Source: Amoebophrya sp. A120
Taxonomy: Eukaryota; Protista; Dinoflagellata
Length of the DNA stretch: 64,000 nt
Direction: 5' to 3'
NCBI GenBank assembly: GCA_905178155.1
Contig: CAJINV010000004.1
Coordinates: 8,330,882-8,394,881, forward strand
The notes under the pieces are model-generated. The model was not told the origin of the DNA. It saw only the letters and a program-made list of their open reading frames with translations, and did no database searches. The stretch's first letter is position 1, and the number at the start of each line of letters is the position of its first letter. Below are positions 1,335 to 63,289 of this stretch, piece by piece. The translations under genes and the position numbers were made by a program.

Positions 1335-4300
1335 TTATATCCACCTCGCTGCCTCATAAGCCTGGATGTAGTCGAACCTAATCCGCTTGAGCATCTTCAA
1401 AAACTGATACTCCATCGTGGAGACGTTATTTCGATCGAAAAATCGATGAAAATAAACGTCGCACAAAGTCGCCAAGTACAGATTCGGCAAGTGGTCGTCG
1501 ATCATGCTATCAACTGCAAATATGTCTTGGTCTGGAAACTTGTGATGCTGAAATGTGCATGATTGAAATCCTTCCAAGTGCAGCCAAGCATGACAAGTTT
1601 TCCGAACACTTTCTCAACCGCAGTCCGCATGAGAAGTTGCGCTTTTGTATGACAAAAGGAGGCGTAGTTTTGTTAGTCATGATGCAACACAGATTTTACA
1701 GGAATGTCGGACTTGCATATACAAGTTCAATGCTCCCAGACCCAGACACATTTGCATTTCATACATGCGCAAGCCGAGCAAAATTCGCCGGTAGTGCTCC
1801 CCGTGGTTTCGGACCCAAAAACAGGTGGGCGCCGCCGTACTGGGGCGAACTTGCAAGTGGAGGCAGAACTTCCCCGGGGGCCGCGGGATCTTGCTGTAGT
1901 CGTGGGTCTTCCGTTGTTGCCCGAAGAGGGTGCCGATGTAGTCCACCGCTTGGGTAAAGTAGGAGGTTTCGCTAATCTCGTCCGCGAGGCTGAGTTTGCG
2001 ATGAGGGGTGCATGGCGGTGAAGTAGATCAGATGTTGCTTTGCATGTAATAATCAGCATGACACGGAAAAAGATCTTGGTCCTCGGGCTCGGCATGGTTT
2101 GGTGTGCTTTCTATAGATGAAATGATTTTGTCTTTGTCAACCGGAACAGCATCAGCATGAAAAAAAGTTTTTCAAAATGAAAACTATACCGGTCAAAGCT
2201 TTCCATGCTGAGGGCCGACACGAAGTCCTTGCCGCGGACGACGCCCAAGATGCGCGGGTCGTTTGTTATCGAGTAGGAAAATTTAGGCGCGAGCGCAGCA
2301 CATTTGTCATGTACAGCGCAAATAGTGCGTCGCTTGATAACTGTATACATTAACACGGTCTGGCGGTCGTCAGATCGATGCAACTGTAATATCTCGCCCG
2401 CAGTGCACACACCCATTGTTTTTTTTGAAAATATTAAGTACATTAAACGCTTCTAAAAAAATCAAAACACGCACGCCCTCAACTCGCACTTCCTTCCCAT
2501 CCGATAGCCATCACGGGGTATTTCGCTGCATTCGCCGCACGACCCGGACTTCTTCCCGCAACTGTTCCCCCCTGCTCTGCGTCGTCGTCATGATAGGCAA
2601 TCGCGGGGCTCCCGAAAAGGAACAGCCTCTTGTTCTCGATTTGGGGAAATTTCCAGTACACCAAAGCCACGGTTGCCGCTCCCAGGGAGTGTCCCGTGAA
2701 GACGAATCTGTAGTCCGGGTTCTTTTTCAAAAAGCGCTCCACCCAGAACCGGATCAACTGCAAATATGTCTGGGTCTGGAAGGTTGCCAGACTTGTCATG
2801 CAGGTTTTATTCCATGACCCATGAGGTCTGGAATGCGGTACCCAGCATGACTGATTCTGTGGCGTGGTCTCTATCATGCCTATCCTGCATGAGAAACTCC
2901 CTCTCAACTTGGTCAAAAGCGGACAGCTTTTGCTACTCATGCAACACAGATTTTTGCATGGTTCAGATTTAGCATGACAAGTTCCACTCTTCCAGACCAA
3001 GACATATTTGCATTGGATAAACCGGATCCGACCGTAGACAAACTCCGCGGACTTGACGAATCCTTTGTGGGTGCGGAACAAAACGCGAACCTCCGTGTTG
3101 TCTTCGTCGGATGGTGTTTGTCGTTGTCCATCTTCAGTGGAAGTTGTCTTTGTACGAGAAGAAACTGTGCTCGTCGCCTCGCCGGTTGTTGAACCTGCCG
3201 TGGGTACTAGCGAAGACAAATTTTTTGGTTTACTATCAGTACTATCCTTTCTCCGTATCAACTGCAAAAATGTCTGGGTCTGGAAGATTGCCAGGTTTGT
3301 CATGCATATTTTGAATGACCCATGATGTCTGTGATGCATGCCCTAGCATCACAGATTTTTCGCGGACTTTGTGATGCCTCTACCGCATGACAAATGCCCT
3401 TTCCGCGTAGCACAAACTGGAGTGCTTTTGCTGGTCATGCAATACAAATTTTTTTAGAATCCAGAGACAGCATTACAAGTTTAGAATCTTCCAGACCCAG
3501 ACATATTTGCATTTGATACTCCGGTGCCGTTCCCGATTCCGTTCCGGACTCCCACTGTTCGGACGGGAGGAACTACTCCCAGGCGGTGCAAAATTGACGT
3601 CGCTCTGGTCTATCAGCAGAGGCTCGTGAGGATTTCTACCTGCAGTTTTCTTCTCGATATTCAAATAAGCTCGCGAAGATGAGGACGTGCTGCTTGTTCC
3701 GGGATAGCCGTTTTTCGTCGTGCCCAATTGATGTTGCCCGTATACAGCATGATCTCCCTCGGGCGACGAGGGAACAAATAACCCTTCGTCTCCGTATATC
3801 GCTTCGTCCTCCGGCGGCCGGATTTTGCGTTCGGGTTTTGGGATTCTAGTCTTCTGTACGGATTGACCGGAAGATCTGGTGCTGTTTGCGGAGGAGCCGC
3901 GGGAGGGTGGTGCCACTACAACAGCAGCTCCTGTGCTGGTCGGCGTTTCTGCTCTCGGTTCCGGCTGAAACAACGTCGAAAGCTGTCCGCCCTGTAGAAC
4001 TCCTCTCCCCCGTTCGTCATAGTCTTCTTTGTTCGGTGATTTTGCGCCCACAAATTCGTTGCCGACGTAGTCGATTTCGGGTAAGCTTTCCTTTCGCTCG
4101 CTCGCCGGCGGACCGAGGATGGCATCGTCGAGGCTGTCGTGTCTGGAAGATGTTGGGCCGTCTTGTTCTACTACCCTCGGTGGTGTACTACTAGCAGTTC
4201 CACTCTTGTTTTTCGGTGCGGGAAAAAGCGAACGCGCCTTAGTATTCGCTTTCACCTTCACGACGTCATTGCCCACCTGCACCTCCGACGGCTCGTCGGA

Positions 4301-7300
4301 AGTGACTAGAGGATCCGCACTATCCTAAGCAAAAACGTCCCCACACCATAGTCAAGTTGGGAATCTAGCAACACAAATCTCCAAGTTTTGGGAGTTGTGC
4401 ATGACAAGTTTCCCTCTGCAGTGTAGTGCTGGTTGACAAGGGAAGCCGCATTAGAAAGCCACTTTCTCATCCTGTTTATAGCATTACAAATTCCAAAACA
4501 CGACTGGTAATGCATCTCATGGAGCTGCGCATTACAAATGTTCCATTCCTGTCATTGCGCATTTGCATGACAACTCTGGTGTGGGTACGTTTTTACTCAG
4601 GATACGCACCAGAAGCGACATCAGGTTCCTGATCGTGAGGTCCTCCCGCGGCTTCCCCCGAGCTCGCACGTCGCCTCAACGCTTCTGCTTCTTGCGCTCG
4701 TCTCTTCTCCTCGTCCCGGGCCTTTGTCAATTCCTGCAACGGGTCCACGCCAAACAGGGCGCTCCCCGCCTTCGGGAACCGGACCGCGAAATCGACTTCC
4801 TCCGCCGCAATATCTGTCATGACGTCTTTCCAAGCCATCGACCCCCGCACAGTATCAACTGCAAAAATGTCTGGGTCTGGAAGGTTGGCACTTGTGATGC
4901 TAACTTTGGACTCTAAAAAAATCTGTATTGCATGACCACCAAGAGGAGTCTAGTTGGTGCTACGCGGGGAGGGCATTTGTCATGCGGAGTAGACATCAGG
5001 AAGCCCTCTAAAAATCTGTGATGCTAGGTTGCGCATTACAGATATCCTGGGTCATGCAAAATATGCATGACAAACCCGGCAACATTCCAGACCCAGACAT
5101 TTTTGCATTTGATAGACAGAGAGAATCAACCACTTCAGTGTGTGGTTCACCGAAAGCACAAACGTATCCAGTGCAAATATGTCTGGGTCTGGAAGGATCC
5201 GAACTTGTGATGCTGCATTTGGATACTACAAAAATCTGTATTGCATGAACAGCAAAAGAGGTCCAGTGTTTGCCACGGAGAGCGGGTAATATTTCTCATG
5301 CGGTATATGCATGAGGAAGCCCTCACAAAATCTGCGATGCTAGGGCATGCATCACAGACGTCAGGAGTCATGCAAACTGCGCATGACAAACCTTGCATCC
5401 CTCCAGACCCAAACATATTTGCAATGCGTAAAACGCTGGCTCGTACATTTCTTCCGTGAACGCAGAAACCAGAATGGGATTCGCCGGTAGAAAAGCGTTG
5501 GTCTTCGTCGGACTGCTTGTACTGCTGGTAGTGGGTGCAGCAGCAGCACCTCCCGTCGCAGCTGTAGTGGCTCCAGTGCCATGGCGGCCTGGTACCGTAG
5601 TGCGGCTTGCGGTTTTTGAATTTTTCCGGCTTGATGTTCCGGGTTTGCTCGGCGATTTAGACGAAGGAGAGCTTGTTCGCGATAAAAATTCCTCTTTGCT
5701 CGTGGTTCTTTTCGACGACGTGGTCCCACTCTGAGAGGTGTTGATTTTCTTCTTGTCCACACTAGATGTTGAAGAGGACTTCTGCTCTGCTCCCGGTAGA
5801 AGTTCTTGCCCATCTACAAATCCAGATGGAAGCTGCGAGGACGTCGTCACTTCCGAACTCGGTTCTATTCTTTTCTTCCTCTGCCACTGCGCGCTGTCTT
5901 GCTTCGCGCCCACGAGGGCGAGGAAGGCCTTTTGGTTCAGCACCTCGTTTTCCAGTTGGTCCATGTTCACCTTCATGAACGCCCCGGCCACCCGTATCGT
6001 AAGGAAAAATCCACCCTCCCCATATTGCAAACGGAGTTTGTGATGCTGTATTTGAGTACACAAATCGACTTGTAATGCCAGAAGGCCAAGAGCCGCAGTC
6101 GTGGCCTCGTTTGCAGGAAATTTGTCATGCTGTTTCCCACTTCCAGCCGCCTCCTGTCATGCTGAAGACGCAAGGCTTCCCCATGCCAACCAGCCCGACA
6201 GCCCGCATCTTTTCCCTTCTAGCATGACGAAGCTGAGTTGTGACAACAAATCTGCATCACAAATTTTCGTTTCGGTATGGGGAGGGGAGATTTTTCCCCA
6301 CAATAACCCACGTTGCCGCACTGTCCACATACCCCTCGTACATCGGCACACCGTACACAGCCCGCATGTAGAGACAGGCGATCATGTATCCTGAGCAAAA
6401 ACGTCCCGGCCCCCTAGTCAAGATGGGAAACCTGCTAAACAAATCTCCAGACTTTGGGAGCTGTGCATGACAAGTTTCCATCTGCAGTGTAGTGGTGGTT
6501 AGCAAGGGAAGCTTCGTGATTTCTCATCCTGTTTACAGCAGTACAAATGCCAAAACACGACTGGAAATGCCTCTCATGGAGCTGCGCATTACAAATGTCC
6601 CTGTCATTGGGCATTTGCATGACAACTCTGGGTCGGGGACGTTTTTACTTAGGATATCATGGTCTCGATGAGGATCGACTTTTCCCGCAACACCGCTGCG
6701 TTATCGAACTGCTTTTCGTACAGCTGCGAGTGCACGTCCCGCAGCCGCCACATCACGGAAGGGTCGAGAAAGGAGAAGAAGTCCTGCGCCCCGTGTCGTC
6801 GATTGGACAGCATGGAGAGCAAGGTGGTAACCGTGTCCCACATGTGCGACGAGCTGCCGCCCGTTTCATTTGTCTGCTCGTGGGCTGGCCGGTGGATCGG
6901 CCGGTTTTGCAGGTCGTCCGCCGCCGCGGCAACCACGTCCTCCTTGTTTTCATCTATGGTTGTAGGGTCAGGCGGGTAATTATTATTCCGGCTGTACGGG
7001 AAAAGCAAAAGACTACTAGACGCTGGATCTTCACTACCAGACGCAGCAGCGCTTTGACTCAATTGCGCACTACTGGTCGTCGCACCGCCGAACCAATCAA
7101 AGTAGCTATTATCGGTGTCGTTTTCCGTGACAGGCGTCGTGTGAATCTGCTGTGGATAGTCGTCGTCGGGGTAGGTATGGGCAGATATTTCTGGTGGTTC
7201 TGGTTCTCCATCAACACGACCTAGAGGTGCGGCACGACGACCAGGGCCGGTGCCACTAGTTGTACCAGGTGTTGAAGAGTTTGAGTCCTCAAAAGGTGGT

Positions 7301-8866: not shown

Positions 8867-9378
8867 TTATCGAGGTGTTAAAGCTCCTAGCGCATGCGGT
8901 GGTGTTCCAGCTCCTGCTCCTCCATCGCCCGGATAGATAAGATCTCCTTCTTGTAGTAACGGCCCATCCGGTGTCATCGCTTCTCCGTCCCCACCAAACG
9001 GGGGTGTCATATCCGCTTCTCCGTCCCTATCAAACGGGGGTGTCACACCTCCTTCCCCGTCCAAGTTGTCCTGGGCTGGGCGGATCAAGTCTCCGTCTCC
9101 CAAGGGAGCGAGGGGCGCGTGTGGGTTCGGAATGATGGGCACGAAGAGGTAACCTATCCCAGTGCCAAAGTGCATGTTTTCTTGTTCAAAGTCAAAGACG
9201 AAGGCCCGTTTGCATAACGACCTGAATTATCGAAATAAATCCAATGCGAGTTGTTGTCCCTGACCAGGTGGTGCAGTGAAGTTTTTATCAGGTCAGCTAC
9301 CTTGAATGATTGTTCATCACACACGGCATGCACAAAGTGGTTAAGCACGACAGTGCGAGGAAGAAAATTGACATGCAC
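8867..9378 (-). CDS. Hypothetical protein fragment(s) with DGExxxTPPF repeat
   Basis: ORFs 9154-9378 and 8867-9175; three 33-36 nt coding repeats at about 8970-9065; exon structure unresolved. Confidence 0.3.
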
Positions 9379-9477
9379 TGAAAATAAAACTGTTGAAATG
9401 GTGCCTCGCTCCCATGCGATGTTTTATTTTTGCCATGATGGTCGTGGACCACCATATAATATATGAACTAGCCTGTT

Positions 9478-24971: not shown

Positions 24972-27900
24972 TCACGTCGTTCCAGAAGCTGTGTTATCGT
25001 AAAAAAAGTGTTTCACTGTAAGGATTTTGCAAGTTTTGCATTACAAGTTCGTATACACATGACCAAGAAAACTTGCCATGCGCGGTTTCTAAGGGAAAAC
25101 ACATTGAAAAACCCAATGTCTTGTATGTGTAGCAAGACAAATAGTTGTGTGCTCCATTCTATGCATCACAAGTTCACAGTGAACAGGTTTTTCTTGCGAT
25201 ATGTGTGGTCTTCCACGTAATATCGGTACATCGTCGCGAGGATTCCGGTATCCTGTGCAAAAGTAACGTACTCGTACTAATCGCATTCATGCATTACAAA
25301 TCTCGTTCCTAAGGCAAATCCGCATTACAAATTTAATTTGTAATGCTGAGCCAGTTTGTATTGCGATTTCTACTAGTACGATACTTTTGCAGTTCATATC
25401 CGGTAGCAGTACTGGTGGAAACATCAACACCAAAATCATCACTATCAGAGTGTTTCCCACCGTTGTTCCCGCCCGAGCTAGACGAGGAAGCAGTGGTCGC
25501 CGCAGTGGTCATCCTCCCGTCCAAGCAGCTGCTGCGGTCGTACAAGTGGATCTCTTCCTGTAGCAAGTCGAACGTCCGTCGAAAGTATGCGTTGCAAATA
25601 GAATGTAGTACGGCGTCTCTGGGTCTGGAAGGACACTGTGAATTGCTGCTTCTCGACTAATATTTTTACACAAAAATCCGTTGCATGGCCGCCAAAACAA
25701 CAAGCCACAAAAATGGGTTTCCTTGTTGCATTCTCCAGAGTACAACTATCGGTGCAGTAAAGTCCGACAAGAAGCATTTACTGTAAAGCTCCTGCGCGAC
25801 AATAAGATAGAACAAATGCACTCTAGTACTAACTTCCAGAGACTCCGACATGACATAATTTGCCCTTTGGATAGAAACACATGCTTGGCGATAAAGTCTT
25901 TATGGTCCTGGATGGCCACGATGCTGTCGGAGGCTTCGCCGATATTCACTGTGGTCGTCGCGAGTTGATGTGCTGTATGCATGTTGGCAAATTCATCTTC
26001 ATTTACATTTTCACCTGGATAGTTCCGGTGGTTACCGGCATTGAATATTCCCCCGCCGGCCGCGATAGTATGGCATTCGTTCACGACGTCAAACATTCGG
26101 TCCATTTCAGACCCGGGGAAGATGCCGAATTTCTGCCCACAACCCAGGGCAAATGGGGATTTTGTAACATACCCCCGCCCGCTTCTAATGCGATTTTTTT
26201 TCCCCAATCGCCATGGTATGGCGCAAGCGCGCGCCCGCCGGACCGCCCTTGGCGACCAGTTTGTAAGCCTGCCGAGGGTTCTCGATGTTTTTTAATTTTC
26301 GCTCTTTTTTCAGGTTTTTAGTCGGCCGAAGGGCTCCGGGCATTTTCACCGACCGCAGCTGACTGGCAGTTTTAAAGCCTGCGGAGGGATTGCGCTTTTG
26401 CGCATTTTTTTCTCTTTTTCCATTTTTCAAGTGGCTGGGGCGACCTGGACATTTTCACCGCCCCCACCTGGGTGGCAGTTTTGAAGCCTGCGGAGCGATT
26501 GCGCTTTTGCGCATTTTTTTCTCTTTTTCCATTTTCTAAGTGGCCCGGGCGACCTGCACACTTTCACCGCCCCCACCTGGGTGGCAGTTTTGAAGCCTGC
26601 GGAGGGATTGCGCTTTTGCGCAATTTCTCATCTTTTTTCATTTTTCAAGTGGCCCGGGTGATCTGGGCAAAATCCGACGATTGCTTCCACCCACGTTATG
26701 AAGCAATTTTTTGCCATTTTTTTCAAACTTTTTCCAGTTACGAAGCGGCCCAAGGCTTCCGGACAGGTCGCGGGCCTGCTTCTCCAACGCAGCTGGCCAG
26801 CGGGCGGAGCAAAAAATAGTCCGTCTCTTTTTCAGATCTCAAGTGGGCCAAACCGCAGAAATGCTCTTTTTCTACCTTCTCCCGCTTGGTTTCTGCCGTT
26901 TTTGCGACATTTTTGACCTCCTGGCCATTTTCCCATCTGGTCCGCTTTTTTTCCCTTCTCCCGCTTCATTTCTGGCCATTTCCCTGACCTTCACGCCTCC
27001 CGGCGGCTGCCATATATGGTAACGGCAACTGCCTTCGCGCTGCGTTTGCTAAGCAATATCGCAAGCGCGCAGAGCGCGCGCGCCGGCTTCGTGGGCCGGC
27101 GCGCGCTCTGCGCGCGCGCGCGCACGCATTTGGTTACCAGATTATTCCCCCGCCGGCCGCGATATTAACCCCAGGATGGTATTCGTTCACGACGTCAAAC
27201 ATATGGCGATACTAAGGACGGATTTTCGAAAAATGTAAAAAAATTTCAGGGGTCGCGCATGTCGCCCGTCCCGTTTGACGGGAATTGCCGGCGCCCCACC
27301 TCATGCTTGAGCAAGATAGCCGAAAGGCCCCGCTTTGAGGCAGTGAGAAAGGCAGACCGGCTTGAGTAGCAGCTGCTGGTGGCCGCATGGCTTCCGGTTC
27401 GCTCTGTCGCTTCGTCCGACGAGTGTGGCGCGCAGAGATTGGTCGGAGCGCTGTGCCGGCCGCGGCTACCACAAGAAGGCGCATCAAAATCGGGTTGGCT
27501 ACCTTTGAGCCCTGCGGCCGCCATCCCGTTGCCCCGCACGCCGACAACACTCGCCGCCCCTCTGGGGTTAAGGAAAAGGCAAAAAAACACGGGCGCGGTA
27601 AGCTCTGGAGAGGGTTTGCCTGCGATGAGGTAACTGCCTTCGCAATATTGCGCTGGCAAATGCAAAGCACACGCACGGCGCGGGCTAGGGCGAAAAAAAG
27701 ACGCTCCGCCCGTTCGCAAACGATGCCGCGGCCTCTTCCGTGAGTTCCTCTAGAGGCTTGCCCTTCCCGTCTTCCATAGACCCCCATTGTGGGCTGCGGT
27801 TCCCGACATCCTGGCAAGCCCCACGTCGAACGCACTCGCCTCTTGCTCATTTCAGAAAATGAAAGGCCGGATCCACCCCCGGACAAAAAAGAAGCAAACG

Positions 27901-39582: not shown

Positions 39583-39833
39583 TATGAAATGTAAAAATGT
39601 CTGGGTCTGGAAGAATGCAAGTTTGTCATGCTTGTCTGGCATGACTCGGGAATCTGTGTTGCATAGGCACGAAAAAGCCTTCTTACCTGTCATGCAAAAA
39701 CGCAGTTTGCCATGCGGAATACGTAAGACATGGCAGCCAAAAAAATTGTCATGCATAGCTGCGTATTGCAGTGCGTCTATCATTCATTTTTAGCATTACA
39801 AGTTTCCAGTCCCAGACATTTTTGCATTTGATA
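39583..39833. mobile_element. Introner family A (predicted 3' UTR)
   Basis: TIRs; TSD taccg. Confidence 0.9.
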
Positions 39834-39839
39834 TACCGC

Positions 39840-42800
39840 TTACATCTCACACCTGCGCTTCAAATCCTTCCGCATGTTTTCCCGGAGTCGGTGGCACAGC
39901 TGTAGGTTATCAAGTGCAAATATGTCTGGGTCTGGAAGAGTGTAGACTTGTCGTGCAGGTTTTCCATGACTCATGAGGTCTGGAATGCGGGACCTAGCAT
40001 GATAGACTCTGTGAGGTCTCTGTCATGCCTATCCTGCATAAGAAACTCCCTCCCAACTTGTTCGAAAGTGGACAGCTTTTGGCGCTCATGCAACACAGAT
40101 ATTTGCATGATTCAGATTTAGCATGACAAGTTGCGATCTTCCAGACCCAGACATATTTGCAATCCATACAGGTCTCGTCTCTGCAACGTGACCCGGCTTC
40201 CGTGCGTCGCGATCAGCAGCGAGTTTGCGCAGAGGAGTGTCAAGCCCTGCTCCATCTATCGCAAGAAAAAACTGTTACAGTTACACATTGTGTTGAAAGA
40301 ACCGCAAGACAGACGACCTTTGTAATGCGGGAAATGCTTGCGAGCCTCGTTTCCTACGTCTTTTTCCTTTTGATCTTTGCATTACAAGTTTTCTCTTCCA
40401 CACAGAGAAAATTTGTGATGCAGAAACTCCAACAGATGTGTAACTGTAACACTTTTTTCTTGTGATACCATCACCTTCTGAAACAGCGTGATCGCCTGGA
40501 GACTCCACTTGCGGTGGGCGTAGCCGAGGTCTTCCTGCTGCTCAAGTATGGAAACAGCAAAGAGCAGGCGGATCGATTTGATGTATATGCGCATTTATTT
40601 GGTTGTGCAGGTGCACTTACGATGTTTCTTGTTCACGGACATCACAGCAATAATATTCATGCACAAGGAGCACCCGCCGCATGACAAATCCACAGCGGTC
40701 TTTGTAGTTGTCTCCTTTGATATGCCGCACCGCACGCCGGAACGCCAGCTATCACAGGAAAAAGTGTTAACGTTAACGGAATTTGTGATGCAGCAATGCA
40801 TCACAAGACATTCCAAAATTTGTAATGCATAGCATGCATACTGGGCTACATTTGTGATGCATGGCTGCAATCTGTGAAAACCGTTAACATTAACACTTTT
40901 TCTTGTGATACCAGCTTAGAAAACATCACGTTCGTCATGGACTGTTTGGACTGGAGGAACCTGTTTTGATCGTGATTCAAAATCCTATCAACTGCAAAAA
41001 CGTCTGGGTCTGGAAGGTTGGAACTTGTGATGCTACCTTTGCACACTAAAAAAATCTGTCTTGCATGACCAGCAAGAGGAGTCTAGTTTGTGCTACGCGG
41101 GGAGGGCGTGTGTCACACGGAGTAGGCATCAGGAAGCCATCTAGAAATCTGTGATGCTAGGTCGTGCATTACAGACATCCTGGGTCATGCAAAATATGCA
41201 TGACAAATCTCAGAATCTTCCAGACCCAGACATTTTTGCATTTGATGAATCCGTGTACGTGTTCGATGTAGTTCTTTGTTTAGCGATTGTGCACGACAGA
41301 CATCAACAGCTGACATCAGATAGTAAAAGCGATTTATGCACCACTGAACCAACATGACCTCCATGAAATTCGCAGCAGATTTAAGTAGTACGCGATCTCC
41401 TGTTCGATCCGTTTCTGTTGGTGCAACCCCACGCTGGTAGCGATGACGCGCTTCCGCCCGGCCAGATACGTTTTTGCGCCGATCGGGCGCCGAATGTTGA
41501 CTTGCGGGTCTTCATCTTTCGCGACCCGGAGCACGGAGGTCTTTATGCATTGCAAATATGTTGCCTGGCACTGGAAGGAGGGGCACTTGTCATGTCATGT
41601 CTGGATTGTGCAAAGATTTCTGTTGCATGATTACCAAAAGGAGGTGTCCACTTTTCAGCAAGTTTATTTGCGGCAGTTTCTCATGCAGGAGGGGTGTGAT
41701 GTTGAAGATATCACAGAATCTGTCATGCTAGGTCCTGTATGCCATACAAGATGGGTCATGGAAAACATGCATGACAGGTCTCGCAATCCTCCAGACCCAG
41801 ACATACTTGCATTTGATAGTCTTCTCCCGGAGCACGTTCGCATTGTTGGCGACGTCACTCGGGTCGAACTGTTTTTCGTTTTGGCTTGCGTGAAATCATG
41901 ATTTATTATCAGCATCACAAAAACCGGTAAAAAATTCTCGTTCTAGTAGTACGAAAAATTTTCTTTGGCTCCTGTGTCGTGCTGTGTGCTGAACATGGCT
42001 CGCAATCGTATGAATGATTTTTACGCAAAATATTACCGAGATCCGATCTACTGTTCATCATCATCTCACAGCGCGCCATACATTATCAAGCTATACCCTC
42101 ATCACTCCCCCTTTCTTCAGCTCGAGCGGGCCGGCAACCCGTGGCTGGATCTGGTTGTGATCCACCGTAAGAACCAAACTGGTGTTTCTCAGCATCTCCT
42201 CGTCTGCATCGAAGTTATTTTGGGTGCCGTCCGTAATATCCTTGTTGCCTGCGGGGAACTCACCGTCACCCCCGTGATCGCCTTGCAGCTCTTCGTCCCC
42301 TTGTAGCTGCTCGAACGTCGGCGCCTTCAGCGGCTGGTGCGCCGGTTTCTTCTTTTTCGCGTTGTTCTGGCGATTGCTCGTTTCAAAAACGCCGGCAGAG
42401 GAGGAGGACGACGCAGCGGCACCAGAGGTCTTGTTTCCCGCGGCGGCAGCTCCCGCAGCGACAGCTGCTTGCTCCCGCCCCCGTTTCCGCTGCATGTAGA
42501 CGGGCATACGGGACGCTGCTGCACCGACACTTTGGTTCGACGTTTCTTGGTCCCGCTGACTGTCCAGCAGTCGCTCCTGTACCGGTTCCTCCTCGCGGGT
42601 CGTCGTGGTACCGAGCTGCTTCTTCTTTGTCTTTATGCATTCCGAAAGCTAAAGTATTTTCGTACTGGCCGCTATAAAGTTCTTTATTTTTGACAAAAAA
42701 GGACAAATATGGCGTCGATGCAGATGTAGATGCAGTTTGCAGCAGCGTGTGCATTTGACACATCAGACATACATCAGGCTGTTTTGATATCATGCAGGTT

Positions 42801-45800
42801 GTTTTGGTGCCATGCTCATGCAGTACGTATCACAATTCATAGTCCGAGACTGAGTACTACCAGATACTTTTGCACGGCATAGTGTTGAATGTACTTCCGC
42901 TCTTGCCTTTCGCCTCCTTCGCCGGCGGAACATCACCCTGCTCTGCAGCAGCAGCAGCCTTTTTGGCGTTTGTCACCGTCTTCTTGTTTTGCTTGTTTCC
43001 CGCAGCAGGCTTGAGAATCTCGTCCGCCATCAGGTCGTCTTCGAGATATGCAGTGCTAAAGCACCGTACTAGTATAAATTGCATTACAAATCGGCTTAGC
43101 ATTACAAATTGACTTTGTAATGCGGCTTTGCCTTAAGAAAAAAATTTGCAATGCATAAACGCAATTGCTACGAGTCCGATACTTTTGCACAGGATACGAG
43201 ATCGATGGCGCCGATCATTTCCGGGGAGTCGTCGTCAACACCGTTCAAGCTGTTCTGGAATTCGTCTTCCGGACTGCCCGCATCGGAGTCGACGTCCTGC
43301 AACACCGGAGAGGAGGGAGAACCGGCGGGGATCTTCTTCCCTTGTTTGGTGGAATTATTCTTCCCATAATTTTTCTTTCCCGTGGACTTGCTGTTGCGCT
43401 TCTGCTTGTTCTGCCCTTGGTCAATCTGCTTCTTCAACCTCTCGGGCATTTTATCGTCGGTGTGGGCAGGAGCTATGTTGTTGCCACCCTCGTCGAGGAG
43501 CGGTGGTGCCACGGAAGTGTTGTTTTTCCGGGTCGACGAGGTGGTCGTTGCACCCCCAGACACCGGTTCCTGTTGGCGGTCTTCACTGTTTCTCGCGATA
43601 CTCGTGGACACGTTCGACAGACCGGAGGTTCTCTGAAGATTCTGCGGCTTCTTGTCAGAACCTCCGTTACTGCTCGACTTGTTCTGCTGCGCTCGTCGGG
43701 AGGTCGTCGTGGTGTCGGACGCGGGTCGTCCAGCTTGTTGTGCAGCGCCGGAGGACGGAGAGGTTGTGCCAGCGGTACCGGCAATAGTCGTGGCAGCAGG
43801 ACCCCCTACTTCATCGCCGGCGATGGTGTTGCTTCGATATTGTTCTTCCACGCCGCTACGGCCTACGCTTTCGTTCTCCTTTCCCTTTGCTTCCAACACG
43901 CTGACAATCTTCTTGAGTCCGGAGGTGTCGTGCAGTACGTGCTCCTCGCAGTTGGCGAACCCGTGAACGACTTGCTGGAAGGTGTGTGCTATACAGTGCA
44001 AAAGCATCGTGCTCGTACTACTTAATCGCGGCCATGCATTACAAATCCCGGGCTCAAGGCAAACCCGCATCACAAACTTCATTTCTCATGCTGAGAAAAT
44101 TTGTCATGCGATTCGTACTAGTACGATGCTTTTGCAATGCATATGTGCGTCCGTGGTCGCAGCGCAGGTGTGCGCAATCTTCGACATCATCATGGCCTTG
44201 ATCTGCAGTTGCCGCAGCGACATCTATCGCAAGAAAAAAACTGTGTAAGCGTAAGTCTGTGATGCAGAAGATGCAAAACAGTTACACTTGTCATGCTGGA
44301 CATGCGTCAGAGCCTCTTTTCGTACGTGTTTTCACGTACTAGCCGCGCATGACATGCTCTCTCTGTCATGCAGAGCAAACTTGTGATGCTATTCCTCCAA
44401 GAAAGTTACACTAACACAGTCTTTTTCTTGTGATAACATCTGGCTCTGGTTTACTTCCCGGCACCACCGATATTCCTCGTCCGTGATCCATGAAGAGTCT
44501 TTCGCCCACTCCACATCGTTCATGTTCATGGGCAGGTGAAACTCCTGGAAGATAAATTCGGTGGTTCTGTTATCCTGTGTAATAACGTCCCGACTCCAGA
44601 GTTGTCATGCACATTTGCAATGACAGGAACACTTGTAATGCGCTTCCACATGACAGGCATTTCCACTCACGTTTTTGCATTTGTAATGCTGCAAACAGGA
44701 TAAGCAGATGGATTTGTGATGCGGTCGTCCTTGCTAACATGCACTTCTACACTACAGACTGCAACTTGTCTTGCGTGGCCTCCAAAACTTCTGGATTTGT
44801 GTTGCTAAGTTTCCAACCTGACTATGGTGTGGGGACGTATTTACTCAGGATATCCGTCGTCGTCTTCGTCGTCCTCCCCGGCAGCGTACCGCGCGACTTT
44901 CTTCGCGGCTTCCCCATTATCAAATGCAAATATGTCTGGGTCTGGAAGATTGCACGGCTTGTCATGCACATTTTGCATGACCCGTGATATCTGTGATGTA
45001 TGCCCCAGCATCACAATTTTTTTGCGGGCATCTTGATGCCTATCCCGCATGAGAAATCCCCTCTCCGCGGAGCAAAAACTGGACGTTTCTTGCTGCTCAT
45101 GCAATACAGGTTTTTTTCGATTCCAAAAATAGCATCACAAGTTGCATTCTTCCAGACCCAGACATTTTTGCAATACATACCCATGCGTTTTAAGCAAGTT
45201 CTTGAACACCCGCAGTTCCCGCGCCTCGTCCTCGTCCTCTTCTTCGTTCGCGTCATTCGTGGTCTCGTTCTGGCTGGGAACGCGTTTCTGCTCTTCCTGC
45301 TCCACGACTTGTTTTTCAAAAGAACTGCTGCCGTTCTTCCCTTGTTCCCCCGCGGCCAATAAAGCAGCTTTACTTTTCGGCTTGGACGACGTCGACTTCG
45401 CTCTTTTCTTGTCCCCGACCAGCTCGTCCTTGAGCACGCTCTTTTTGAACTTCTTGCTACTGTTTCCTTTATTCTTGTTGGCCGACGCAGTAGAGGGTAG
45501 CTTCGAGCTTTTGTTCTGCTGCTGGGGCACGACCCCACCGACCAGCCCTCGCTGTTGCAGCGGATGTTGATCTACTTCTTCTGCAGGAACAGCCAGTTGT
45601 GGTGTATTGTTGTTGGTCGAGTTGCTCGTGCGGGGGTCTTTTTTCGACGAAGAACCCGACGTGTTGTTCGGCTGGACGGTGTTGTTCGGCGTAGTGCTGC
45701 CTCCCCCGCTGGTAGAGGTTCGCATGGCTGCCTGCTGTTGCAGCAGCGAACTTGCCTGTCCCAGAATCTCCTTCGCGTGCCTGGGCCGCGGAAGTGTAGT

Positions 45801-46822
45801 TGTACTGTTGGTGCCGCTTACAACAACCGCTCCGGAGGACTTCGACGTTCGGCCCCCGAATTTATTGTTGGAGTTTTGCTGTGCAGGGCGCCACTGAGAC
45901 GAATTGGGGTTGATCGTTTGCTGCGGCTCCACCATCAGGGAAGTAGTAGCAGAAGCAGTAGCAGCGCCGCTGCCGAGCTGCGGCTGCCGCAGGTCGGGGA
46001 CGAGCGAGGATTGCACCACCATGGAAGATCCGGCAGATCCATTCTTCTGGAAAGAACTCGGGCTGTTGGGGTCGTTGACGACGACCAGGCTGCCGGTACG
46101 GAAAATCACGTCCGGTTGCTGGTGTCCTACTTCTACCTGCTGCTGCGAGAGTTTGTCGTAGTTCAAATTGTTCAGCTGCGGGGCGTGCAACGCCGGCGGT
46201 TGTTGTCCTGCTCCGGGAGCTGCACCACCAGTTGTCCGGAAAGTAGACGAAGACGAAGCTGCAGCACTCGCAGGTTGTCCACCGTCGGCTTTGCTGCGCG
46301 GCTGTTGCGACGTCGAAGCAGGCACTTTTCCCCGTGTAGTTCCTGCTGCTTTCGATGCGCCCAATGTCGTGGTCACAGCAGCACTCCCTGTAGCGCCACT
46401 TCCCTGCGTCGCACCGACGGCACTACTGCTCGCCTTGTTGGCCGGCGGTGCTTTTGCATCGGTGGACTTCGCGTGGCTGTGTCGGGCCCGGACAGTATCC
46501 TGTGGAAAAACCAAAAAACTACCCACTGCGTTACTCTTGTTTACCTCGCGCGACTTCTCGTTTCCGTATCCGTTTGACTATATTGAAAAGTAAAATCCCA
46601 AAGGGAAGTTTGAGTAGAGCACGTTTCCGTTTGACTATAGCTACTTTCTTTTCTTCCAGACTTCTCACAAGCATGACCAATTACAGTTTCCAAACACCTA
46701 CTTAGTGTAGAACGCCGCCCATGCAGATTTTTGCATGACAAGTAGGAGTACATCTTGTGGAATGGGTATTAAGTACTTAGCGGTTTTTACCCAGGATAAA
46801 CGTCATCGATGAGCCGGGCCAT
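39840..46822 (-). CDS. Histone H3-fold (CenH3/CENP-A-like) protein with roughly 1,100-aa N-terminal extension
   Basis: Spliced C-terminus FSKLAFRRAVRH..KWSLQAITLFQKVMEQGLTLLCANSLLIATHGSRVTLQRRDLQLCHRLRE aligns with H3/CENP-A helices 1-3; three junctions (about 40580-40720, 41279-41378, 41897-42095) are degenerate. Confidence 0.75.
39908..40168. mobile_element. Introner family A
   Basis: TIRs; TSD taggt/caggt. Confidence 0.9.
40257..40467. mobile_element. Introner family D
   Basis: TIRs; TSD ccatc. Confidence 0.92.
40750..40910. mobile_element. Introner family D variant (161 bp)
   Basis: TIR tatcacaRgaaaaagtgttaa; TSD ccagc. Confidence 0.92.
40986..41247. mobile_element. Introner family A
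   Basis: TIRs; TSD aatcc. Confidence 0.92.
41544..41818. mobile_element. Introner family A
   Basis: TIRs; TSD gtctt. Confidence 0.9.
42634..42881. mobile_element. Degenerate introner family F
   Basis: TIR remnants; TSD gtctt/gtgtt; frame restored. Confidence 0.72.
43047..43196. mobile_element. Introner family F
   Basis: TIRs; TSD cgaga. Confidence 0.9.
43990..44143. mobile_element. Introner family F
   Basis: TIRs; TSD tgtgc. Confidence 0.92.
44225..44435. mobile_element. Introner family D variant
   Basis: TIRs; TSD acatc. Confidence 0.92.
44571..44852. mobile_element. Introner family B
   Basis: TIRs; TSD tctgt/tccgt. Confidence 0.88.
44918..45179. mobile_element. Introner family A
   Basis: TIRs; TSD cccat. 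Confidence 0.92.
46496..46798. mobile_element. Degenerate introner family B
   Basis: tatcctg...caggata ends; removal plus 5 nt gives MARLIDDV|RARHSH in frame. Confidence 0.65.
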
Positions 46823-48396
46823 CTTGGTTACTTTTGCGTACAAAACTTGCTGTTCTTTTCTAGTTCTCTTCAATTCTCTCTCACGACCATGATACACAAA
46901 AATTGTCCTTGATATTACAGAACCATCATCTACTTCGTCACCCTATCGTAGATTTCAAATTTCAATTTCTTGCTTTTGTGGTGCCGTTTTACAACTATTT
47001 GTATTTGCCGGAGTCTTGACCTGTGTAATTAGATATTTACCACTATGTGCTGTGAGGGTACTAGTAGCCGGAGCGAATCGGCCACACTTTCAGTTGAAAT
47101 TGAAATTGATTTTGCGCTTGTTGGCTTTCTAGCGTACTATCCTGAATAAAGACTGGTGGGTATTGCTTCCCTAGCGGGATGATGAAGTAGGGGAGCGCTT
47201 CAACAATATGAATATTGCTCAAAATTATTTCCCTTTGCAGGACGAGGTACTATAATGGGCAGTTATTTCTGCTGCTGCGTTCTGTGGGGTCGTCGTCGTC
47301 GTCGTTGGGAGACAAAGGAATGAGCGTATCATCTGTAAATCTAATATTGCGGCAAATATAGTTACGTCTTTGAAATCTTTCTCGTGTAGTCCCGCTGCAG
47401 GGGAGCAAAACACAGCTATCTTTTTTCCAACTAGCAGTGACGAGACGACTCGCAACGAAGCGGCTCGATCTTCTCGGAACAACTCAACCAAAGAAGTATC
47501 CGATTTATGTGCTTCTGCTTCCTTTTACAACTCGATTTGGACGAAACTCTGTAATATTCTGCCTTCCTCCGAAAAAACAACTACTCAGGCGATTTTTTCT
47601 TCGACGTTTGATTCGATCACGAGGAACAGGTTTTACTGCGCTAAATCTTAATTTGCGCTTTAGGAGGTTGTGTCATCTCTTCCCCCTGCCTTACGCTACA
47701 AATACTTTTTTTCCTATTTTTCCAACAAACTGTATACAAGAGACGAAAAACAATCACTGCGTCATAGGTCGGTCTTCCTTTATGATACAGTTGCATTTGT
47801 TTTCGAAGGTTTCTATTCTACAATTGCATTTACGTCGTTCAAAGTCATTCTGCCCACGTTGCCGTGTCTCAGCGAAGATTTACTTACTACAGCTGCGTGC
47901 TTCTTGTTCTCCGACAAGAAGCGCAAGAAAGTAGTTCTTGGAAAACAGGCTTGTTTACTATCTCCGGAGAAGTAGCTGGAAAACAAGCTGTTCTAATTTT
48001 TTCGCGAGACCTCCGCGCAAAATTCATTCTTTGAATGGTTGCTCTGAAGAGCCTACCACGTGTACTAGCTGTTTTTTAAGCAGCTACTACAACACTTTTA
48101 CTTTACGTAGGTGTAAATAAGTAGCAAAATACAGTTGCAATTTTGGGATTCATCCGCTGCCGCTTGGACGTTGTCACCCGATAAGATAAACAAGTCAGTG
48201 CACTATATCGTACTCGAGGTATCAGACGGGGGCTTTCATCTTTTGGTACAGTGTTGCATTTTGTTTTGGTACAATAAATGAAACTACGTGCGAGCTACTG
48301 CTCGTTGCTTTTTTTTAGCACCAGAGATATTAGATCGGTCAACACGATTTTGTCATGAGGTGCCGAGGTAATAATTGAATATCAAAGTCGTGTGAG

Positions 48397-51700: not shown

Positions 51701-54322
51701 CCTCGTGCTCCATGAGAAAGGACAAGAAAAGGTAGCAGCACCAGTTAAACGGCAAGATCAGCTGCAGGGTGCGCACGGCGCTGGGCATCTTGATACTTTG
51801 CGCGTCCGCGGCCGTCAGTTCTACTTTGGCCGCCGGGGGCTGCTGCGGGTTTTCGGCCGCGACTTCGTCTTCCCCGATGGAGTCCAGAGTGGAGTTGCGC
51901 GGAATTGTTCCCGTCTTCGAGGATTGCTTCTTCACCAGGAGCGGGGAAATTTCGTTTTCCTCCTGCTGGCCCTCAGTCGCTCGCTGCAGTTGTTTTTCGG
52001 TGAGGTTTTTTTCGTAGTTGCCCTGCACCAAATCCACGATGATGATCCGGAACGCGCGGGACAAAACCGCTACGATGCTCTATCGTATTTAAAAACGTCC
52101 CCACCCGATAGTTGTAATGCAAATCTGCCTGCTGAAAATGTTTCTCATGCGGAACCCCATGAGAAGCATTTTCTGTTCGTGCTTCGTATTTTGTCATGCT
52201 CCAATCAGCATGATGCACTAGATCTGTGATGCTACTGAGCTAGCTCAAACAGCACTACAATACGAGTCCAAATTTGTCATGCAAGACAGCCAAAGCTTGT
52301 GGATTTGTCTAGCCATTTCCCAATCTAGACTTTGGGGTAGGGGCGTTTTTACATAGGATATGCTCCAGATGATGCCCAGGGAAAAACTGGCCGACGGACC
52401 GGCTATGGGGAAACGCGCGGCGGCCAAGGCACCGGCACTTCTCTCGGAGGAAGTAGAAGGGAGCATGCTTGCTGTTGTTCCCGTAGCTGCGGCTAGTAAC
52501 AGATGCAAAAAACTGGACTGCTGCTCCACGTTCGTAGTATCAACCCCGAGGACGGCGGCTGTTGTAGAAGTACTCTTGCGACCGGCGACCATCGCTTCTG
52601 CACCCGCAGGGGTGGATGTTGCGGTTGGGGCGGAGGTCGTCGCGGCGGGGGCCGCACCTCCTCCGGGAGCGATTGCGTTGTCCGACTGAATATCGACTGC
52701 AAATATGTCTGGGTCTGGAAGGATGCCAGACTTGTCATGCAGGTTTTTCACGACCCATGAGGTCTGGTATGTAGGACATAGCATGACAGATTCTGTGAGA
52801 GTTCTATCATGCCTATCCTGCATGGGAAACTCCCTCTCGATTAGGTCAAAAGTGGACACCTTTTGGTAATCATGCAACACAGATTTTTACATGATCCAGA
52901 TTTAGCATGACAAGTTGCTTTGTTCCAGACCCGGACAATTTTGCATTTGATACTGGAAATCACTGAGTCCGGACCCAGCGCCGGCCGCGAACATGCCGCC
53001 GAGCACGATGGGCAAGACGGAAGGTCATATGGGATTCTCAATTGTATACATCCTCAACTGTTACATGAATTTGTGATGCAGGAACGGAGCTTGCAACTCT
53101 TGCATTAGAAATTTATTGCCAGAGTCAGATTGTTCCCATCCTGTTTGGCTCTAATTCCAAAATTTGTCATGCGAAGTAGCTTCACCGTGTGGATGCTGAT
53201 GCTCATTTTGCATGACAAATCATGCAACAGTTGAGAAGGTAACCGAGTTGAGAACGCCATAGCCCAGGTCCACCGGTTGTACTGCACGTTGGGCTGCAGT
53301 ATGAACTGCAAACATGTCTGGGTCTGGGAAGTTGCGAGATTTGTCATGCTAGTCTGGCATGACTCTGAACTCTGTATTGCGTCGTGCCCGCGAAGTAGAG
53401 CTCTTCCTATCTGTTTTGCAAAAACGCAGTTTCTCATGCGGGTTACGCAACTCTGAACCACGGAAAACGTTGCCATGCGGGGCAGCGCATAATTACAGTG
53501 CGCTCACTCTACTCCCCTTTCTTGCATCACAAGTTTATTCCAGACCCAGACATATTTGCATTTGAATTTGATATGCAGGACCGAGGTGACGACGATGCTG
53601 ACGGCCGGCCCGACCATCATGACGGGCTCCACCACGGACACTGGGAGGTACAGTAGACAGGACAGGTAGCTGAACCCCGAGAGCACGTTCAGCATCACAT
53701 TCGCCACCAGCAGCGAAACCGGCAGGCCGAGAAAGCTGTTCTTTTGCTGCTTGAACATGGCTATCAAATGCAAAAGCATCGCACTCGTTGTATAAATGCA
53801 TGACAAATAATTCCCTCAGCATGAGAAATGAAATTTGCAATGCGCATTTACCTTGAGAAAAAAATTTGTAATGCATGATTGCAATACGAGTACGATACTG
53901 TTGCACAGGATAATGGCGTAACTCTTGTGACCCGGGGTAATGGTGAAGTTGTACGCATTGCCGAACAGCAGGTACAGACTGGTCACCAAGAACACGTGTG
54001 TGGCCACGCACACGTTGAGAAACAGTGGCGCCTGGAAGTTCAGCCGCCAGTCTAGGAAGGTGTTTGTGGTGGTCGTCGTTGGTGCTGTTACACCAGCTCC
54101 AGGCGCATTCTCATTTTCGACGGCGTGCGGGTCCTGTGTGGAGAGTTTGTAGACCAAAACATAGAACACGTAGCTGCCCGTGTGCACCAGCGCCTGCAAC
54201 ACCTCGCTGAATATCATGCACGGGGTGGACATGCGGGCAGCTGCTGCACCCGGCTGTTGGACGAGTACTTCTGCCGGTTGCCGCTGCTCCGCCGCTTTGG
54301 CGTCCGCCGCCACGTCTGGCAT
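48738..54322 (-). CDS. DMT-superfamily transporter, TPT/SLC35 (nucleotide-sugar / triose-phosphate transporter-like)
   Basis: Multiple TM segments; spliced C-terminus LIDACGSYTCSIFANLNRMCSAIFAVLLLHEPVTKLQLFGAGLLVFG matches the TPT-family last helices; 3' half traced in frame to TGA 48738. Confidence 0.8.
48801..49082. mobile_element. Introner family B
   Basis: TIRs; TSD gacct. Confidence 0.92.
49115..49380. mobile_element. Introner family A
   Basis: TIRs; TSD aagtt. Confidence 0.92.
49491..49825. mobile_element. Introner family G
   Basis: TIRs; TSD tcgcc. Confidence 0.92.
49862..50130. mobile_element. Introner family A
   Basis: TIRs; TSD agagc. Confidence 0.92.
50188..50420. mobile_element. 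Introner family D
   Basis: TIRs; TSD aagcg/aagtg. Confidence 0.9.
50549..50817. mobile_element. Introner family A
   Basis: TIRs; TSD cgcgc. Confidence 0.9.
50892..51155. mobile_element. Introner family A
   Basis: TIRs; TSD gcggt. Confidence 0.92.
51188..51509. mobile_element. Introner family C
   Basis: TIRs; TSD ggtgt. Confidence 0.9.
52081..52360. mobile_element. Introner family B
   Basis: TIRs; TSD tgctc. Confidence 0.92.
52691..52952. mobile_element. Introner family A
   Basis: TIRs; TSD ctgaa/ctgga. Confidence 0.9.
53300..53573. mobile_element. Introner family A
   Basis: TIRs; TSD tgcag. Confidence 0.9.
53762..53912. mobile_element. Introner family F
   Basis: TIRs; TSD atggc. Confidence 0.92.
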
Positions 54323-54946: not shown

Positions 54947-55023
54947 GTTGATTGTTCCAATTCACGTTTCTTTTCGAACAAGTAGAAAATCATTTTCTCG
55001 CGTAAGTATGTGATTCATTTTTT

Positions 55024-57434: not shown

Positions 57435-60400
57435 TCACCCGTCGGCCTCGTCCGCGGACCAGCCCCTGACGGGAATGTGGTAGGCCGCCTGCACGGCTGG
57501 GTACACCGGGAATTCCTGCCCGTTATGCACTGCAAAAGCATCGTACTAGTATAAATCGCATCACGAATTTCCTCAGTGTCAGCATGAGAAATTGTAATGC
57601 GGATTTAAATTGAGAAAGAAATTTGTAATGCAGGAATGCGATTTTTAGCACGAGTACGATGCTTTTGCAATGCATATCCGTCCGCTGCCAGCCATTTCCC
57701 GAAGACGCCCGTGGGCGCCGTGTACGCTGTAAACGTGTCCGGCGTTTCCGCTGCGATAAGGCTGGAATCCAGGTACCGCAGCAGCCCTTCTGTGTCTTCC
57801 GCCGTCAGCCGGTGCAGCAACCGGTTCGATGCACCCTGCAATGATCCCTCTGATGCGCCGGCCTCGCCGCTTTTAAAAGGCTCGGAGCGGAAGAGGAACC
57901 TGTCATGCGCGCGTTGGTGCAGTAAGTTTACTAGTACCAAGAAACGAACCGAAGTATGGTCCTTGGGATGATGATGATGATGATGATGATGTTACCCAGT
58001 AAAGCTGTGTGCTGATAAAAATCTACCAAGCAGAGCTATCTTGTACAGGAAAACCAAAACATAAACGGCATCAACGTCAACATAATATACCCAGTTCCGT
58101 CCTTAAAAATTCCCACGATAAAGGAGGTAGAGGGCAGTGCGCGCACCGAGTCCCCATTGCCCATGGCGTGCAGCTTCGCCTGGATCAGGTAGGCGTTAAA
58201 CAGGGCTCCTTGATGATTATTTTGGTGGTGCTGGTACTTTGCCCCTACGGTTGGGATGAAAACGTGGGGCAATCGAGCGACCGGGGAAAGTTCAGCCGCG
58301 AAGTTGCCGCCGGTGAGCGCCCACGCGACCAGCCCGGTGGGGAGGTAGTCGCGGTTATGGAAGCGTCAGGATTGAAATCGTCAAAGTTGAAAAAATGATT
58401 TGTGATGCATAAAATGCAACCAGCAAAGTGCCTGTCTTGCAGAGTAGGCAAGGGAGGCAGATTGTAAGCCTGTTGAGGCTGAGGAGTAGTAGAAATAAAG
58501 CTGCTAAAGCAGCATGACAAAAGGCGTCTTCCTTACCCAAACAGCATTACAAACTGGATTTAGGCACTACCAAAATTTGTCATGCGCCACTTAGAAACTG
58601 GGTTCCAACTGGTCTCGATTTTATGCATTACAAAGTATTTCAACTTTGTCGATTTCAATCCTGACAGATCCATAGCGGTCCGCGAACCCGTAGTCGTGCA
58701 CGATGCTCTGGTATGCAAAGAAAAAAGTGCTACAGTTACACATTGTGTTGCAAGACCGGCAGTACAGACCACCTTTGTCATGCCGGAAGTGCGTTGAAGC
58801 CTCATTCCCTTCGTGTTTTGCCTTATGATCTTTGCATTGCAAGTTTTCTCTGTCATGCAGAGAAAACTTGTGATGCAGAATTCACTACACCCGTGTAACT
58901 GGTGTAACACTTTTTTCCTTGGATATCTGGATCAGAAGCGGATAGGTGCGCGTCTTCAACCTGTATGAGAGTACACAATTGTTCCCCCTCTTTCTCATTT
59001 CTCCTGCAAAACACCAACTCCTACAGGCTGTGCCTGTGCCTCTTGGCAAAGGTTTGCATGACAAACTCCGGAAGCCCAAACAGTACTACTTACACTGCTG
59101 TGCATCAAATTTGTCATGCAAAACCGGCACTCTTGTTGCTGACGCTTGTATAATTATGCCGTTCATGCAACACAAATGAGGGGGACTCGAGGGGAAATTA
59201 CTGTGCACTGTCATAAACTGCGGACCGTTTGCACGAGCTGCTGCTGCACCTTTTGGATGTTCTCCTTCTCGGTCCAGTCCTATCCAAGAAAAAAAGTGTT
59301 ACAGTTACACATTTGTAGTGAATTCAGCATCACAAATTTGCCTCGCATGACGGAGATGAAAGTTGTATTATGCAGAGATTATAAGGCAAAACACACACGA
59401 AGCGAGAATCGCAAGCATTCTGCGCATGACAGAGGTCGTCTGTCTTGCATGTTTTGTAACACGGTCTGTAACTGCAACACTTTTTTCTTTGCATAAGTCC
59501 GGAACGGCCATCTCCCCGTGCACCTCGCTGGTCGTGTACCCGAGCGTATCACGAGGAAAATAAATCCCCCGTCCCCATACTGAAAGTGAAAAGGAATATT
59601 TTTGAAAAATATTTGTAATGCTGATTTATCACCACAAATCGCATCTGTCTTGCAAGAAGGCAACTCCACAGGCTCCCCCGCATTATGCCGGTGCTTTGTC
59701 ATGCTATTGGGCCTACAGCTCGGACGTTTTTCATGCCAACAGCCTAGGCCAAAACCTCTCTTTACTCGGGCTTGATACTGGCCTGCAGTCCTCGACCCAG
59801 CAACACAAATCTGATTTGTGTACTTACGCAAATTCAGCATCAGAAACTTCGTTTTGATACTATGGGGAAGGGGGATTTTTCCTTTTGATAGAGCGCGTTC
59901 ATGAGCAGGTAGATGGCGTAGTCCGCCTGGGGCACCAGGCCCAGCCGCGTCACCGCGCTCTCCAGGGGAAAAATTTGCTCGTTGTAGTTGAAACGACGGG
60001 TCGGGGCGTATCCTGAGCAAAAACGTCCCCACCCCTGAGATAAAGATGGGGAATCCGCTAGACAAATCAGCCACCTCTGGTTATTTCGCATGACAGGTTT
60101 ATCCTCGTAGCGTAATCCTGTTTAGCTAGTTTCGAAGCATCACAGATCTAGCATACCATGCTGATTCTAGCATTACAAATTTCAAAACACGATAAGAAAA
60201 TGGTTCTCATGGGGCTCCGCATGATATTGAGAAACTTTTTCGGCATGCAGATGTGCATGACAACTCTGGTGTGGGGACATTTTCAACTAGGATAGGGCGT
60301 CCGGAAGCTGATGGCCCAGCTGTTCGTACCGGTGCCGCAGGTCGTCACGCAGCACGGCCGCGAGGTCGCTAGTATCAAATGCAAATATGTTGTTCTTTGA

Positions 60401-63289: not shown

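Follow-up and report, generated by a model that had tools for sequence, protein, structure and literature searches.

A helically phased motif lattice shared by introner families of Amoebophrya sp. A120, a candidate site for a mobilising DNA-binding protein

The introner elements in 64,000 nucleotides of Amoebophrya sp. A120 DNA (contig CAJINV010000004.1, positions 8,330,882 to 8,394,881; this whole stretch is called the window) share one short internal motif, TTGT[CGA]ATGC or its complement GCAT[GCT]ACAA, whose sites are set on a lattice with the period of the DNA helix. The 9-mer is probably a half-site in double-stranded DNA for a transposase, or for a helper protein, that mobilises all of the families. 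The motif clearly erodes with the age of a copy and is not required for splicing, motif-free introns being still skipped (in one of three cases by inference).

Tens of thousands of repeated non-canonical introns were reported for A120 by Farhat et al. (2021, PMC7789003); according to the sections consulted, both U1 snRNA and a transposase went undetected there. Introners, and internal binding repeats of DNA transposons, are already known; what seems to be new in detail is the phased lattice common to the families, together with the fixed offset of the splice cut. Neither motif nor lattice was found in the literature searched (the figure logos S19-S25 of PMC7789003 lie outside a text search), and the motif strings gave 0 matches in the searched supplement of PMC7789003 and in 12 of the 14 supplement files of PMC12130899. 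The window separates two problems posed by A120, namely how introners spread and how they are spliced.

Elements and their ends

Seventy-eight TIR elements (TAT...ATA, 5-bp TSD, 134-470 bp, 20,170 bp summed) were curated by hand in the window (Table 1); the call at 9956 is uncertain, and counts over 77 elements exclude it. The target duplication was perfect at a length of 5 bp in 48 of 77 elements, and at 3, 4, 6, 7 or 8 bp in only 0-3 of 77 (6 bp, 0/77). TAT stands at nearly all ends, and TGT at 1/77 5' ends in the window and 2/163 in related loci. By column counts the terminal layout is TAT, then seven loose bases, then AAA; families G and H are without the AAA run. With TIRs, a fixed TSD, short length, many copies and no coding content, the elements have the features of MITEs, the non-autonomous TIR DNA transposons.

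The long element-bearing frames are all on the minus strand, and removal of the elements opens frames of 694-1528 codons. Gene 15599-23015, which holds the most decayed copies, has almost no cover by RNA contigs, the open 1528-codon frame being the sole support for the elements there. Every called copy sits in or at reading frames or within an intron, and no elements were called in intergenic stretches between long frames (e.g. 7800-9400, 37800-38400, 46900-48700).

For comparison, a pattern scan of a single further assembly, in which these families recur, gave 155 overlapping loci (547 kb; "related loci"), which yielded 432 further elements, 163 of them oriented, for a pooled set of 509. The window's unique DNA is not overlapped by these loci.

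Some unusual copies were also seen. At 14431-14843, adjoining the family C copy 14104, lies a probable uncalled H2-like element with two relaxed motif sites. In the family A copy 36716-37185 about 208 bp of unrelated sequence, unmatched in related loci, separate the left TIR from the first motif site. Two long copies, L023:505-1608 (1104 bp) and L028:632-1465 (834 bp), have intact TIRs and TSDs with unrelated interiors, that of the former being rich in short repeats.

Table 1. Elements, introns and transcript of the window. Sites in family A are given as position in the consensus, with > and < for the two senses; X1 and X3-X5 are sequencing runs.
Feature	Coordinates	Strand	Remarks
Curated TIR elements (n=78)	1508..63102	.	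contain 153/155 exact motif copies
Family A, ~262 bp	example 3256..3518	.	consensus sites >42 >74 <91 >114 <130 <184 <215
Family A, other starts	1508, 2752, 4853, 5165, 15683, 16617, 17329, 18190, 18958, 20477, 25586, 29023, 29511, 33293, 34077, 36716, 37237, 39583, 39908		
Family A, further starts	40986, 41544, 44918, 49115, 49862, 50549, 50892, 52691, 53300, 55098, 60373, 61529, 61869, 62380, 62823		
Family B, ~280 bp	example 4321..4604	.	consensus of six sites, single orientation
Family B, other starts	6387, 15987, 20094, 20862, 44571, 46496, 48801, 52081, 60009		related B2 at 31492
Family C, ~322 bp	example 5995..6305	.	others 14104, 35524, 51188, 59547
Family D/E, ~211 bp	example 40257..40467	.	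others 22129, 24995, 32018, 37555, 44225, 50188, 55460, 58712, 59281, 60822
Family D/E, short relative	40750		
Family F, 150 bp	example 25249..25398	.	sites 25291, 25322, 25338; others 28642, 42634, 43047, 43990, 53762, 57524
Family G, ~310 bp	example 58356..58674	.	others 29847, 49491
Family H1	example 53028..53261	.	
Family H2	58964-59215		
Old family A intron, no motif site	25586..25873	-	skipped in X3, X4, X5; X1 spans it unskipped
Old family F intron, no motif site	42634..42881	-	skipped in RNA contigs, joint 42628/42882
Decayed intron, no exact or relaxed site	30203..30494	-	skipping inferred: position 138 of the record is where a contig piece starting at 30495 begins
Old family B intron, 1 exact + 1 relaxed site	46496..46798	-	skipped in RNA contigs
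Old intron, 1 site, TSD 3/5 changed	40547..40722	-	together with joints 39903/40170 and 46491/46800, its joint pins the cut to -1/+4
Family A copy nested in canonical intron	40986..41247	.	lone copy of 240 oriented without 5' terminal T
Host transcript	38463..46942	-	RNA contigs skip at least 13 element introns, and also 2 introns of the canonical GT-AG kind; open frame of 1229 codons after joining

One motif common to all families

On the plus strand 86 copies of TTGT[CGA]ATGC and 69 of GCAT[GCT]ACAA were counted. It can be seen that 153 of these 155 exact copies lie within the 78 elements, against 2 in the remaining 43,830 bp; the Markov expectation inside elements is 1.7 exact copies, with a maximum of 7 in 200 runs. 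The enrichment check thus bears out the preliminary description, which had judged the motif rare outside the elements. The fourth variant of the middle base, GCATAACAA, has 0 occurrences. The motif is wider than the 9-mer, since GCATnACAG, GCATnAGAA, GCAAnACAA and GCATnGCAA are enriched 25-85-fold; a relaxed motif, defined as GCAT[GCT]ACA[AG] plus GCATnAGAA, GCAAnACAA, GCATnGCAA and GCATnACCA, has 284 sites inside elements and 8 outside, 2 of the 8 falling in the probable uncalled element at 14431-14843.

The motif is common to all eight families of the window, as had been claimed, and in the pooled 509 elements it is present in 14 of the 14 clusters with at least two members. Copies free of sites were 0/280 where a neighbour exists at 85% identity or more, versus 12/59 among singletons. 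The inverted pair described for family A was recovered about 40 nt inside each end, as was the reversed order in family F (sites in Table 1). Two statements had to be narrowed. The presence of both orientations in each element is not general, the sites of family B being nearly all one-way; and the families are less dissimilar than had been supposed, since TAT...ATA ends and a 5-bp TSD are common to all and D and E form one cluster.

An array of a different word, GTGTCAAGATAT-like and in six copies (gaps 25, 21, 33, 22 and 57 bp), lies at 48399-48566, just past a gene end, and is unmatched in related loci.

Lattice and helical phasing

In consensus maps of 11 families the sites alternate every 16 bp on a lattice >0 <16 >32 <48. 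Seven of the 8 window families have same-sense pairs 31-33 bp apart (a count matched in 13 of 20,000 random layouts when the spacing is left free), convergent pairs stand at 46-50 bp and divergent pairs at 16 bp, all three spacings following from this one pattern. Most modules repeat at distances of 72-75, 80-87 or 93-96 bp; a single gap measures 54.

The helical turn of B-DNA is 10.4-10.5 bp. Distances between same-sense sites gave a best period of 10.5 bp when periods of 7-20 bp were scanned (R 0.52; 0/400 random layouts), with a second peak near 16, and a fine scan gave 10.4 bp, also for the 35 pairs 55-130 bp apart (0/2000 random layouts). Across 55-220 bp the phasing is weaker and is reached by 4.8% of random layouts. 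For 15 module gaps p was about 0.005, for clade-collapsed subsets 0.006-0.10 and for one such clade-collapsed pick, of six gaps, only 0.05-0.10; these p values overstate independence, because the modules were drawn by eye post hoc and the families are related. Among 47 lattice positions without a called site, 10 exceed the 95th percentile of the background (2.4 expected) and 42 lie above the median. Masking of the motif leaves 46 of 55 family pairs with spacers that do not align (z<3), and 9/55 with z>=3. The phasing suggests a DNA binder without singling out which.

Erosion of the motif with age

The mean number of relaxed sites falls from 4.3 in the 48 copies with intact TSD to 1.0-1.6 in the 8 copies with at least three TSD mismatches (Spearman -0.47 between sites and mismatches over 77 elements). 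The preliminary description had the motif persisting in two decayed copies. The copy at 30203-30494 contains neither exact nor relaxed sites, what remains of them being mutated further, and the copy at 46496-46798 retains 1 exact and 1 relaxed site versus about 6 in young family B, so that persistence was not upheld.

Decay at the neutral rate, which the preliminary description had named as a result that would refute its reading, was found in three old copies, those with both RNA proof of splicing and an assigned family (25586, 42634 and 46496, picked as old by the analyst): mismatches to the nearest young copy were 36/114 in the motif and 102/329 in the interior (p=0.91). In the same test TIR positions 14-30 had 21/100 mismatches, and AAA and TAT had 1/18 and 0/18, two end classes that are favoured by how the elements were found. 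Similarly, when the 11 most and 53 least diverged window copies were compared, the excess divergence was +0.19 to +0.28 for the motif, +0.25 for the interior and +0.03 for TAT.

It was not found cleanly in larger, biased samples, in which motif divergence lay below that of the interior in every age bin. There the ratio of motif to interior decay was 0.44-0.48, with upper limits of 0.73-0.98 (480 of 509 pooled copies), and regression on the TSD clock gave a slope ratio of 0.51 with a 90% interval of 0.34-0.77 (282 of 479 copies; TIR 0.68), values that are pushed down because the most decayed copies are missed and older divergence of master lineages is counted as age. Family A copies from related loci, selected by a pattern with one site, were excluded from the main regression and included in the estimate of 0.44-0.48. 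There may be weak selection on the motif, or a small role for it, after insertion.

A mobilising DNA-binding protein and its alternatives

A binder of double-stranded DNA acting in the mobile phase is favoured because the spacing follows turns of B-DNA, the sites are neutral to strand, and the motif is present in young multi-copy elements and lost in old spliced ones. A transposase or its helper is placed first because the 5-bp TSD and TA..TA ends match family 38 of the A120 introners, which the parts consulted of PMC12130899 describe as a TIR DNA/Ginger family with 5-bp TSD, TA/TA termini and integrase-like homology. Of the single trans-acting factor proposed earlier, the shared factor is therefore supported, with internal sites of the transposase type as the best fit; the preference for a splicing factor is unsupported, because motif-free introns are spliced and the elements lie about 50:50 in orientation.

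A possible course of events is as follows. A dimeric protein would read 25-bp pseudo-palindromic units, one good half being sufficient; units three turns apart would set the proteins on a single face of the helix, and proteins so aligned could help to bring the two ends of an element together for an integrase-like transposase. Elements whose lattice is good would multiply, so that master lineages would retain the sites and copies would lose them once inserted. For splicing, what would count is the ends, namely the terminal TAT/ATA, the U at intron +2 and the stem formed by pairing of the ends.

Counting against a transposase are the half-rate decay of the motif in the larger samples and the sites themselves, which fill the whole element, so that a subterminal position could show only in a full-length parent. 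By Pfam, no transposase or integrase was found in 87 open frames (80 of 301 from related loci, 5 from the window and 2 from L028), nor was a cognate autonomous element or a candidate DNA-binding protein for the lattice among these frames. Viral contigs gave 0 matches for two patterns, and an Rfam scan gave 0 matches.

With known systems the agreement is partial. The A120 introners of PMC7789003 are alike in their ends (TAT, seven loose bases, AAA), direct repeats, non-canonical splice pairs and introns of about 240 nt; in the sections consulted no shared internal motif or lattice is described, and splice sites are called variable relative to the hairpin. General mobilisation of these introners by a transposase is ruled out there. 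In the window the direct repeat is a 5-bp TSD, and a single -1/+4 cut agrees with all informative joints listed. As far as the integrase-like transposons are covered in the sources consulted (PMC2836005, PMC10045372, PMC11282704), Ginger1 and Ginger2 have termini TGTNR (PMC2836005), to which the window elements do not conform; Ginger2/Tdd have TSDs of 4 or 5 bp, TDD-4/5 making 5-bp ones (PMC2836005), in agreement with the window; IS3EU shares the TA..TA ends (PMC10045372), and IS3EU/GingerRoot differ in their 6-bp TSD, as do IS481EU with TSDs of about 4, 15 or 25 bp. Unlike these transposons, the window elements have no transposase frame. A hAT transposase is reported to bind short subterminal motifs (PMC3143072, in part), and the Herves motif CG/AATTCAT resembles the present one in being short and repeated inside the TIRs on both sides; it differs in sequence and termini, and the window sites, putative as binding sites, fill the element on a lattice phased at 10.4 bp. 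The nonconventional introns of Euglena, from what was consulted of PMC12501133, likewise have a non-GT-AG cut at fixed offsets from paired end motifs, there N3CDG...CHGN5-6 and here N-TAT...ATA-N4, the window ends being transposon TIRs. If a mobilising protein is the reader of the lattice, the shared phased sites provide a defined bait for it, and they suggest that many apparent families are one system.

The lattice could instead belong to a host protein that binds double-stranded DNA or chromatin, and the elements would exploit this protein for copying or for gene targeting; such a protein may also give weak selection after insertion. We consider this unlikely, yet it survives better than the other alternatives. 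It draws on the same phasing and on the slower decay of the motif in large samples. Moreover, a transposase is absent from the 87 frames and unreported for A120 in the sections consulted of PMC7789003. Against it, host DNA is almost free of the motif (2 exact copies in 43.8 kb), as would hardly be expected of sites for a general host factor; the motif also tolerates change at its middle base, and the oldest spliced copies lose it at the rate of the interior. Alveolate factors with AP2 domains bind TGCATGCA-like words, which would speak for a host binder.

Improbable, more so than a host binder, is an RNA signal, either a protein site or an internal stem, that boosts splicing of the non-canonical introns. 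The motif is confined to introns and decays at a ratio of about 0.5, outer sites are able to extend the terminal stem in some copies, and a new factor might be expected since U1 snRNA was not found in Amoebophrya, by the sections consulted of PMC7789003. However, introns without the motif are spliced, and it is hard to see what a 10.4-bp period would mean on single-stranded RNA. Every family occurs both ways relative to its transcripts, about 50:50 and without strand bias (flipped: A 18/35, B 6/11, C 3/5, D 4/9, E 1/3, F 4/7, G 2/3, H 1/2), and in the 163 oriented of the 432 elements from related loci the two senses of the motif were counted 163 versus 151 times. Because the six sites of family B run one way, its RNA shows almost exclusively one word in about half of the copies and almost exclusively the complement in the rest. 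In RNA folds the first and last 30 nt still form 14-21 expected pairs in 4 of 5 old spliced introns (42634 only 0.5), while motif-to-motif pairing ranges from 0 to 0.92 and is 0.01 in the spliced family B copy 44571. Stems between motifs were therefore rejected as a general function, no consistent stem being present in the folds.

That the motif has no function at present, as a relic of one ancestral repeat or through low mutability, is highly improbable and already largely refuted: the families do share ends and TSD length, and masked similarity does remain in 9 of 55 pairs, but among young copies motif columns differ 3-4 times less than spacers (0.048 vs 0.153) while the wobble base varies like a spacer, and the spacing outlives the similarity of the spacers.

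The preferred reading, a mobilising protein, also has an extended form, in which the same lattice protein moves all introner families and in addition marks the introns at the DNA level for a spliceosome that lacks U1 and cuts at a fixed distance from the ends. We hold this form to be improbable; if true, introns would be defined from a DNA template, and it is the transposon system that would supply the definition.

Fixed splice cut of the element introns

Runs X3-X5 were taken as RNA by inference, and their contigs also skip canonical introns; X1 is a DNA-type run. Between 39577 and 46800 the X3/X4 contigs skip 13 element introns and 2 canonical introns at the 15 of 36 joints listed. Three of these joints are informative because the TSD copies differ: at 39903/40170 and 46491/46800 the left copy must contribute one base or more, and at 40541/40723 it can contribute no more than one. 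In transcript sense, only a cut that falls 1 nt ahead of TAT and 4 nt beyond ATA is compatible with all informative joints listed. This -1/+4 cut retains one TSD copy and recreates the sequence before insertion. Under this rule the 5' ends of 77 elements are GT in 23, AT in 19, TT in 17, CT in 17 and TC in 1, and the 3' end is AG in 3/77; the element introns are thus non-canonical. The nine commonest splice pairs of A120 (Table S4 of PMC7789003, consulted in part) all have T in second place because the cut is -1/+4.

Of 240 oriented copies, 239 retain the first T of TAT, which is intron position +2, and copy 40986 is the one without it; the matching 3' terminal A is kept in 233/240 (5' versus 3' difference, p 0.015 without copy 40986 and 0.068 with it). 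Old splice ends of the window and of related loci show no drift towards GT or AG. The fixed cut, kept in motif-free old introns, is a testable splicing rule and could correct gene models.

The A that stands seven bases ahead of the 3' cut, invariant in the window, was considered as a branch point. It was changed at 0/77 3' ends versus 6/77 5' ends in the window (p 0.028) and at 2 versus 4 of 163 in related loci, so the signal was not repeated and the idea was set aside as a weak lead.

Element 24995-25201 is spliced in an X4 contig and partly retained in an X3 contig that is already without its two neighbouring element introns. A canonical GT-AG intron of 2.3 kb lies at 25973-28303 on the minus strand, where a loose RNA end at 25972 resumes at 28304 with the joined frame open; it contains tandem repeats of 109 bp and, at intervals of about 1.1 kb, a 37-bp repeat in three copies. 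Both RNA-confirmed canonical introns at 40959-41389 and 41869-42096 have AAAACAG as their 3' end in transcript sense, a sequence rich in purines instead of pyrimidines, and the latter starts with GTAT, resembling an element intron.
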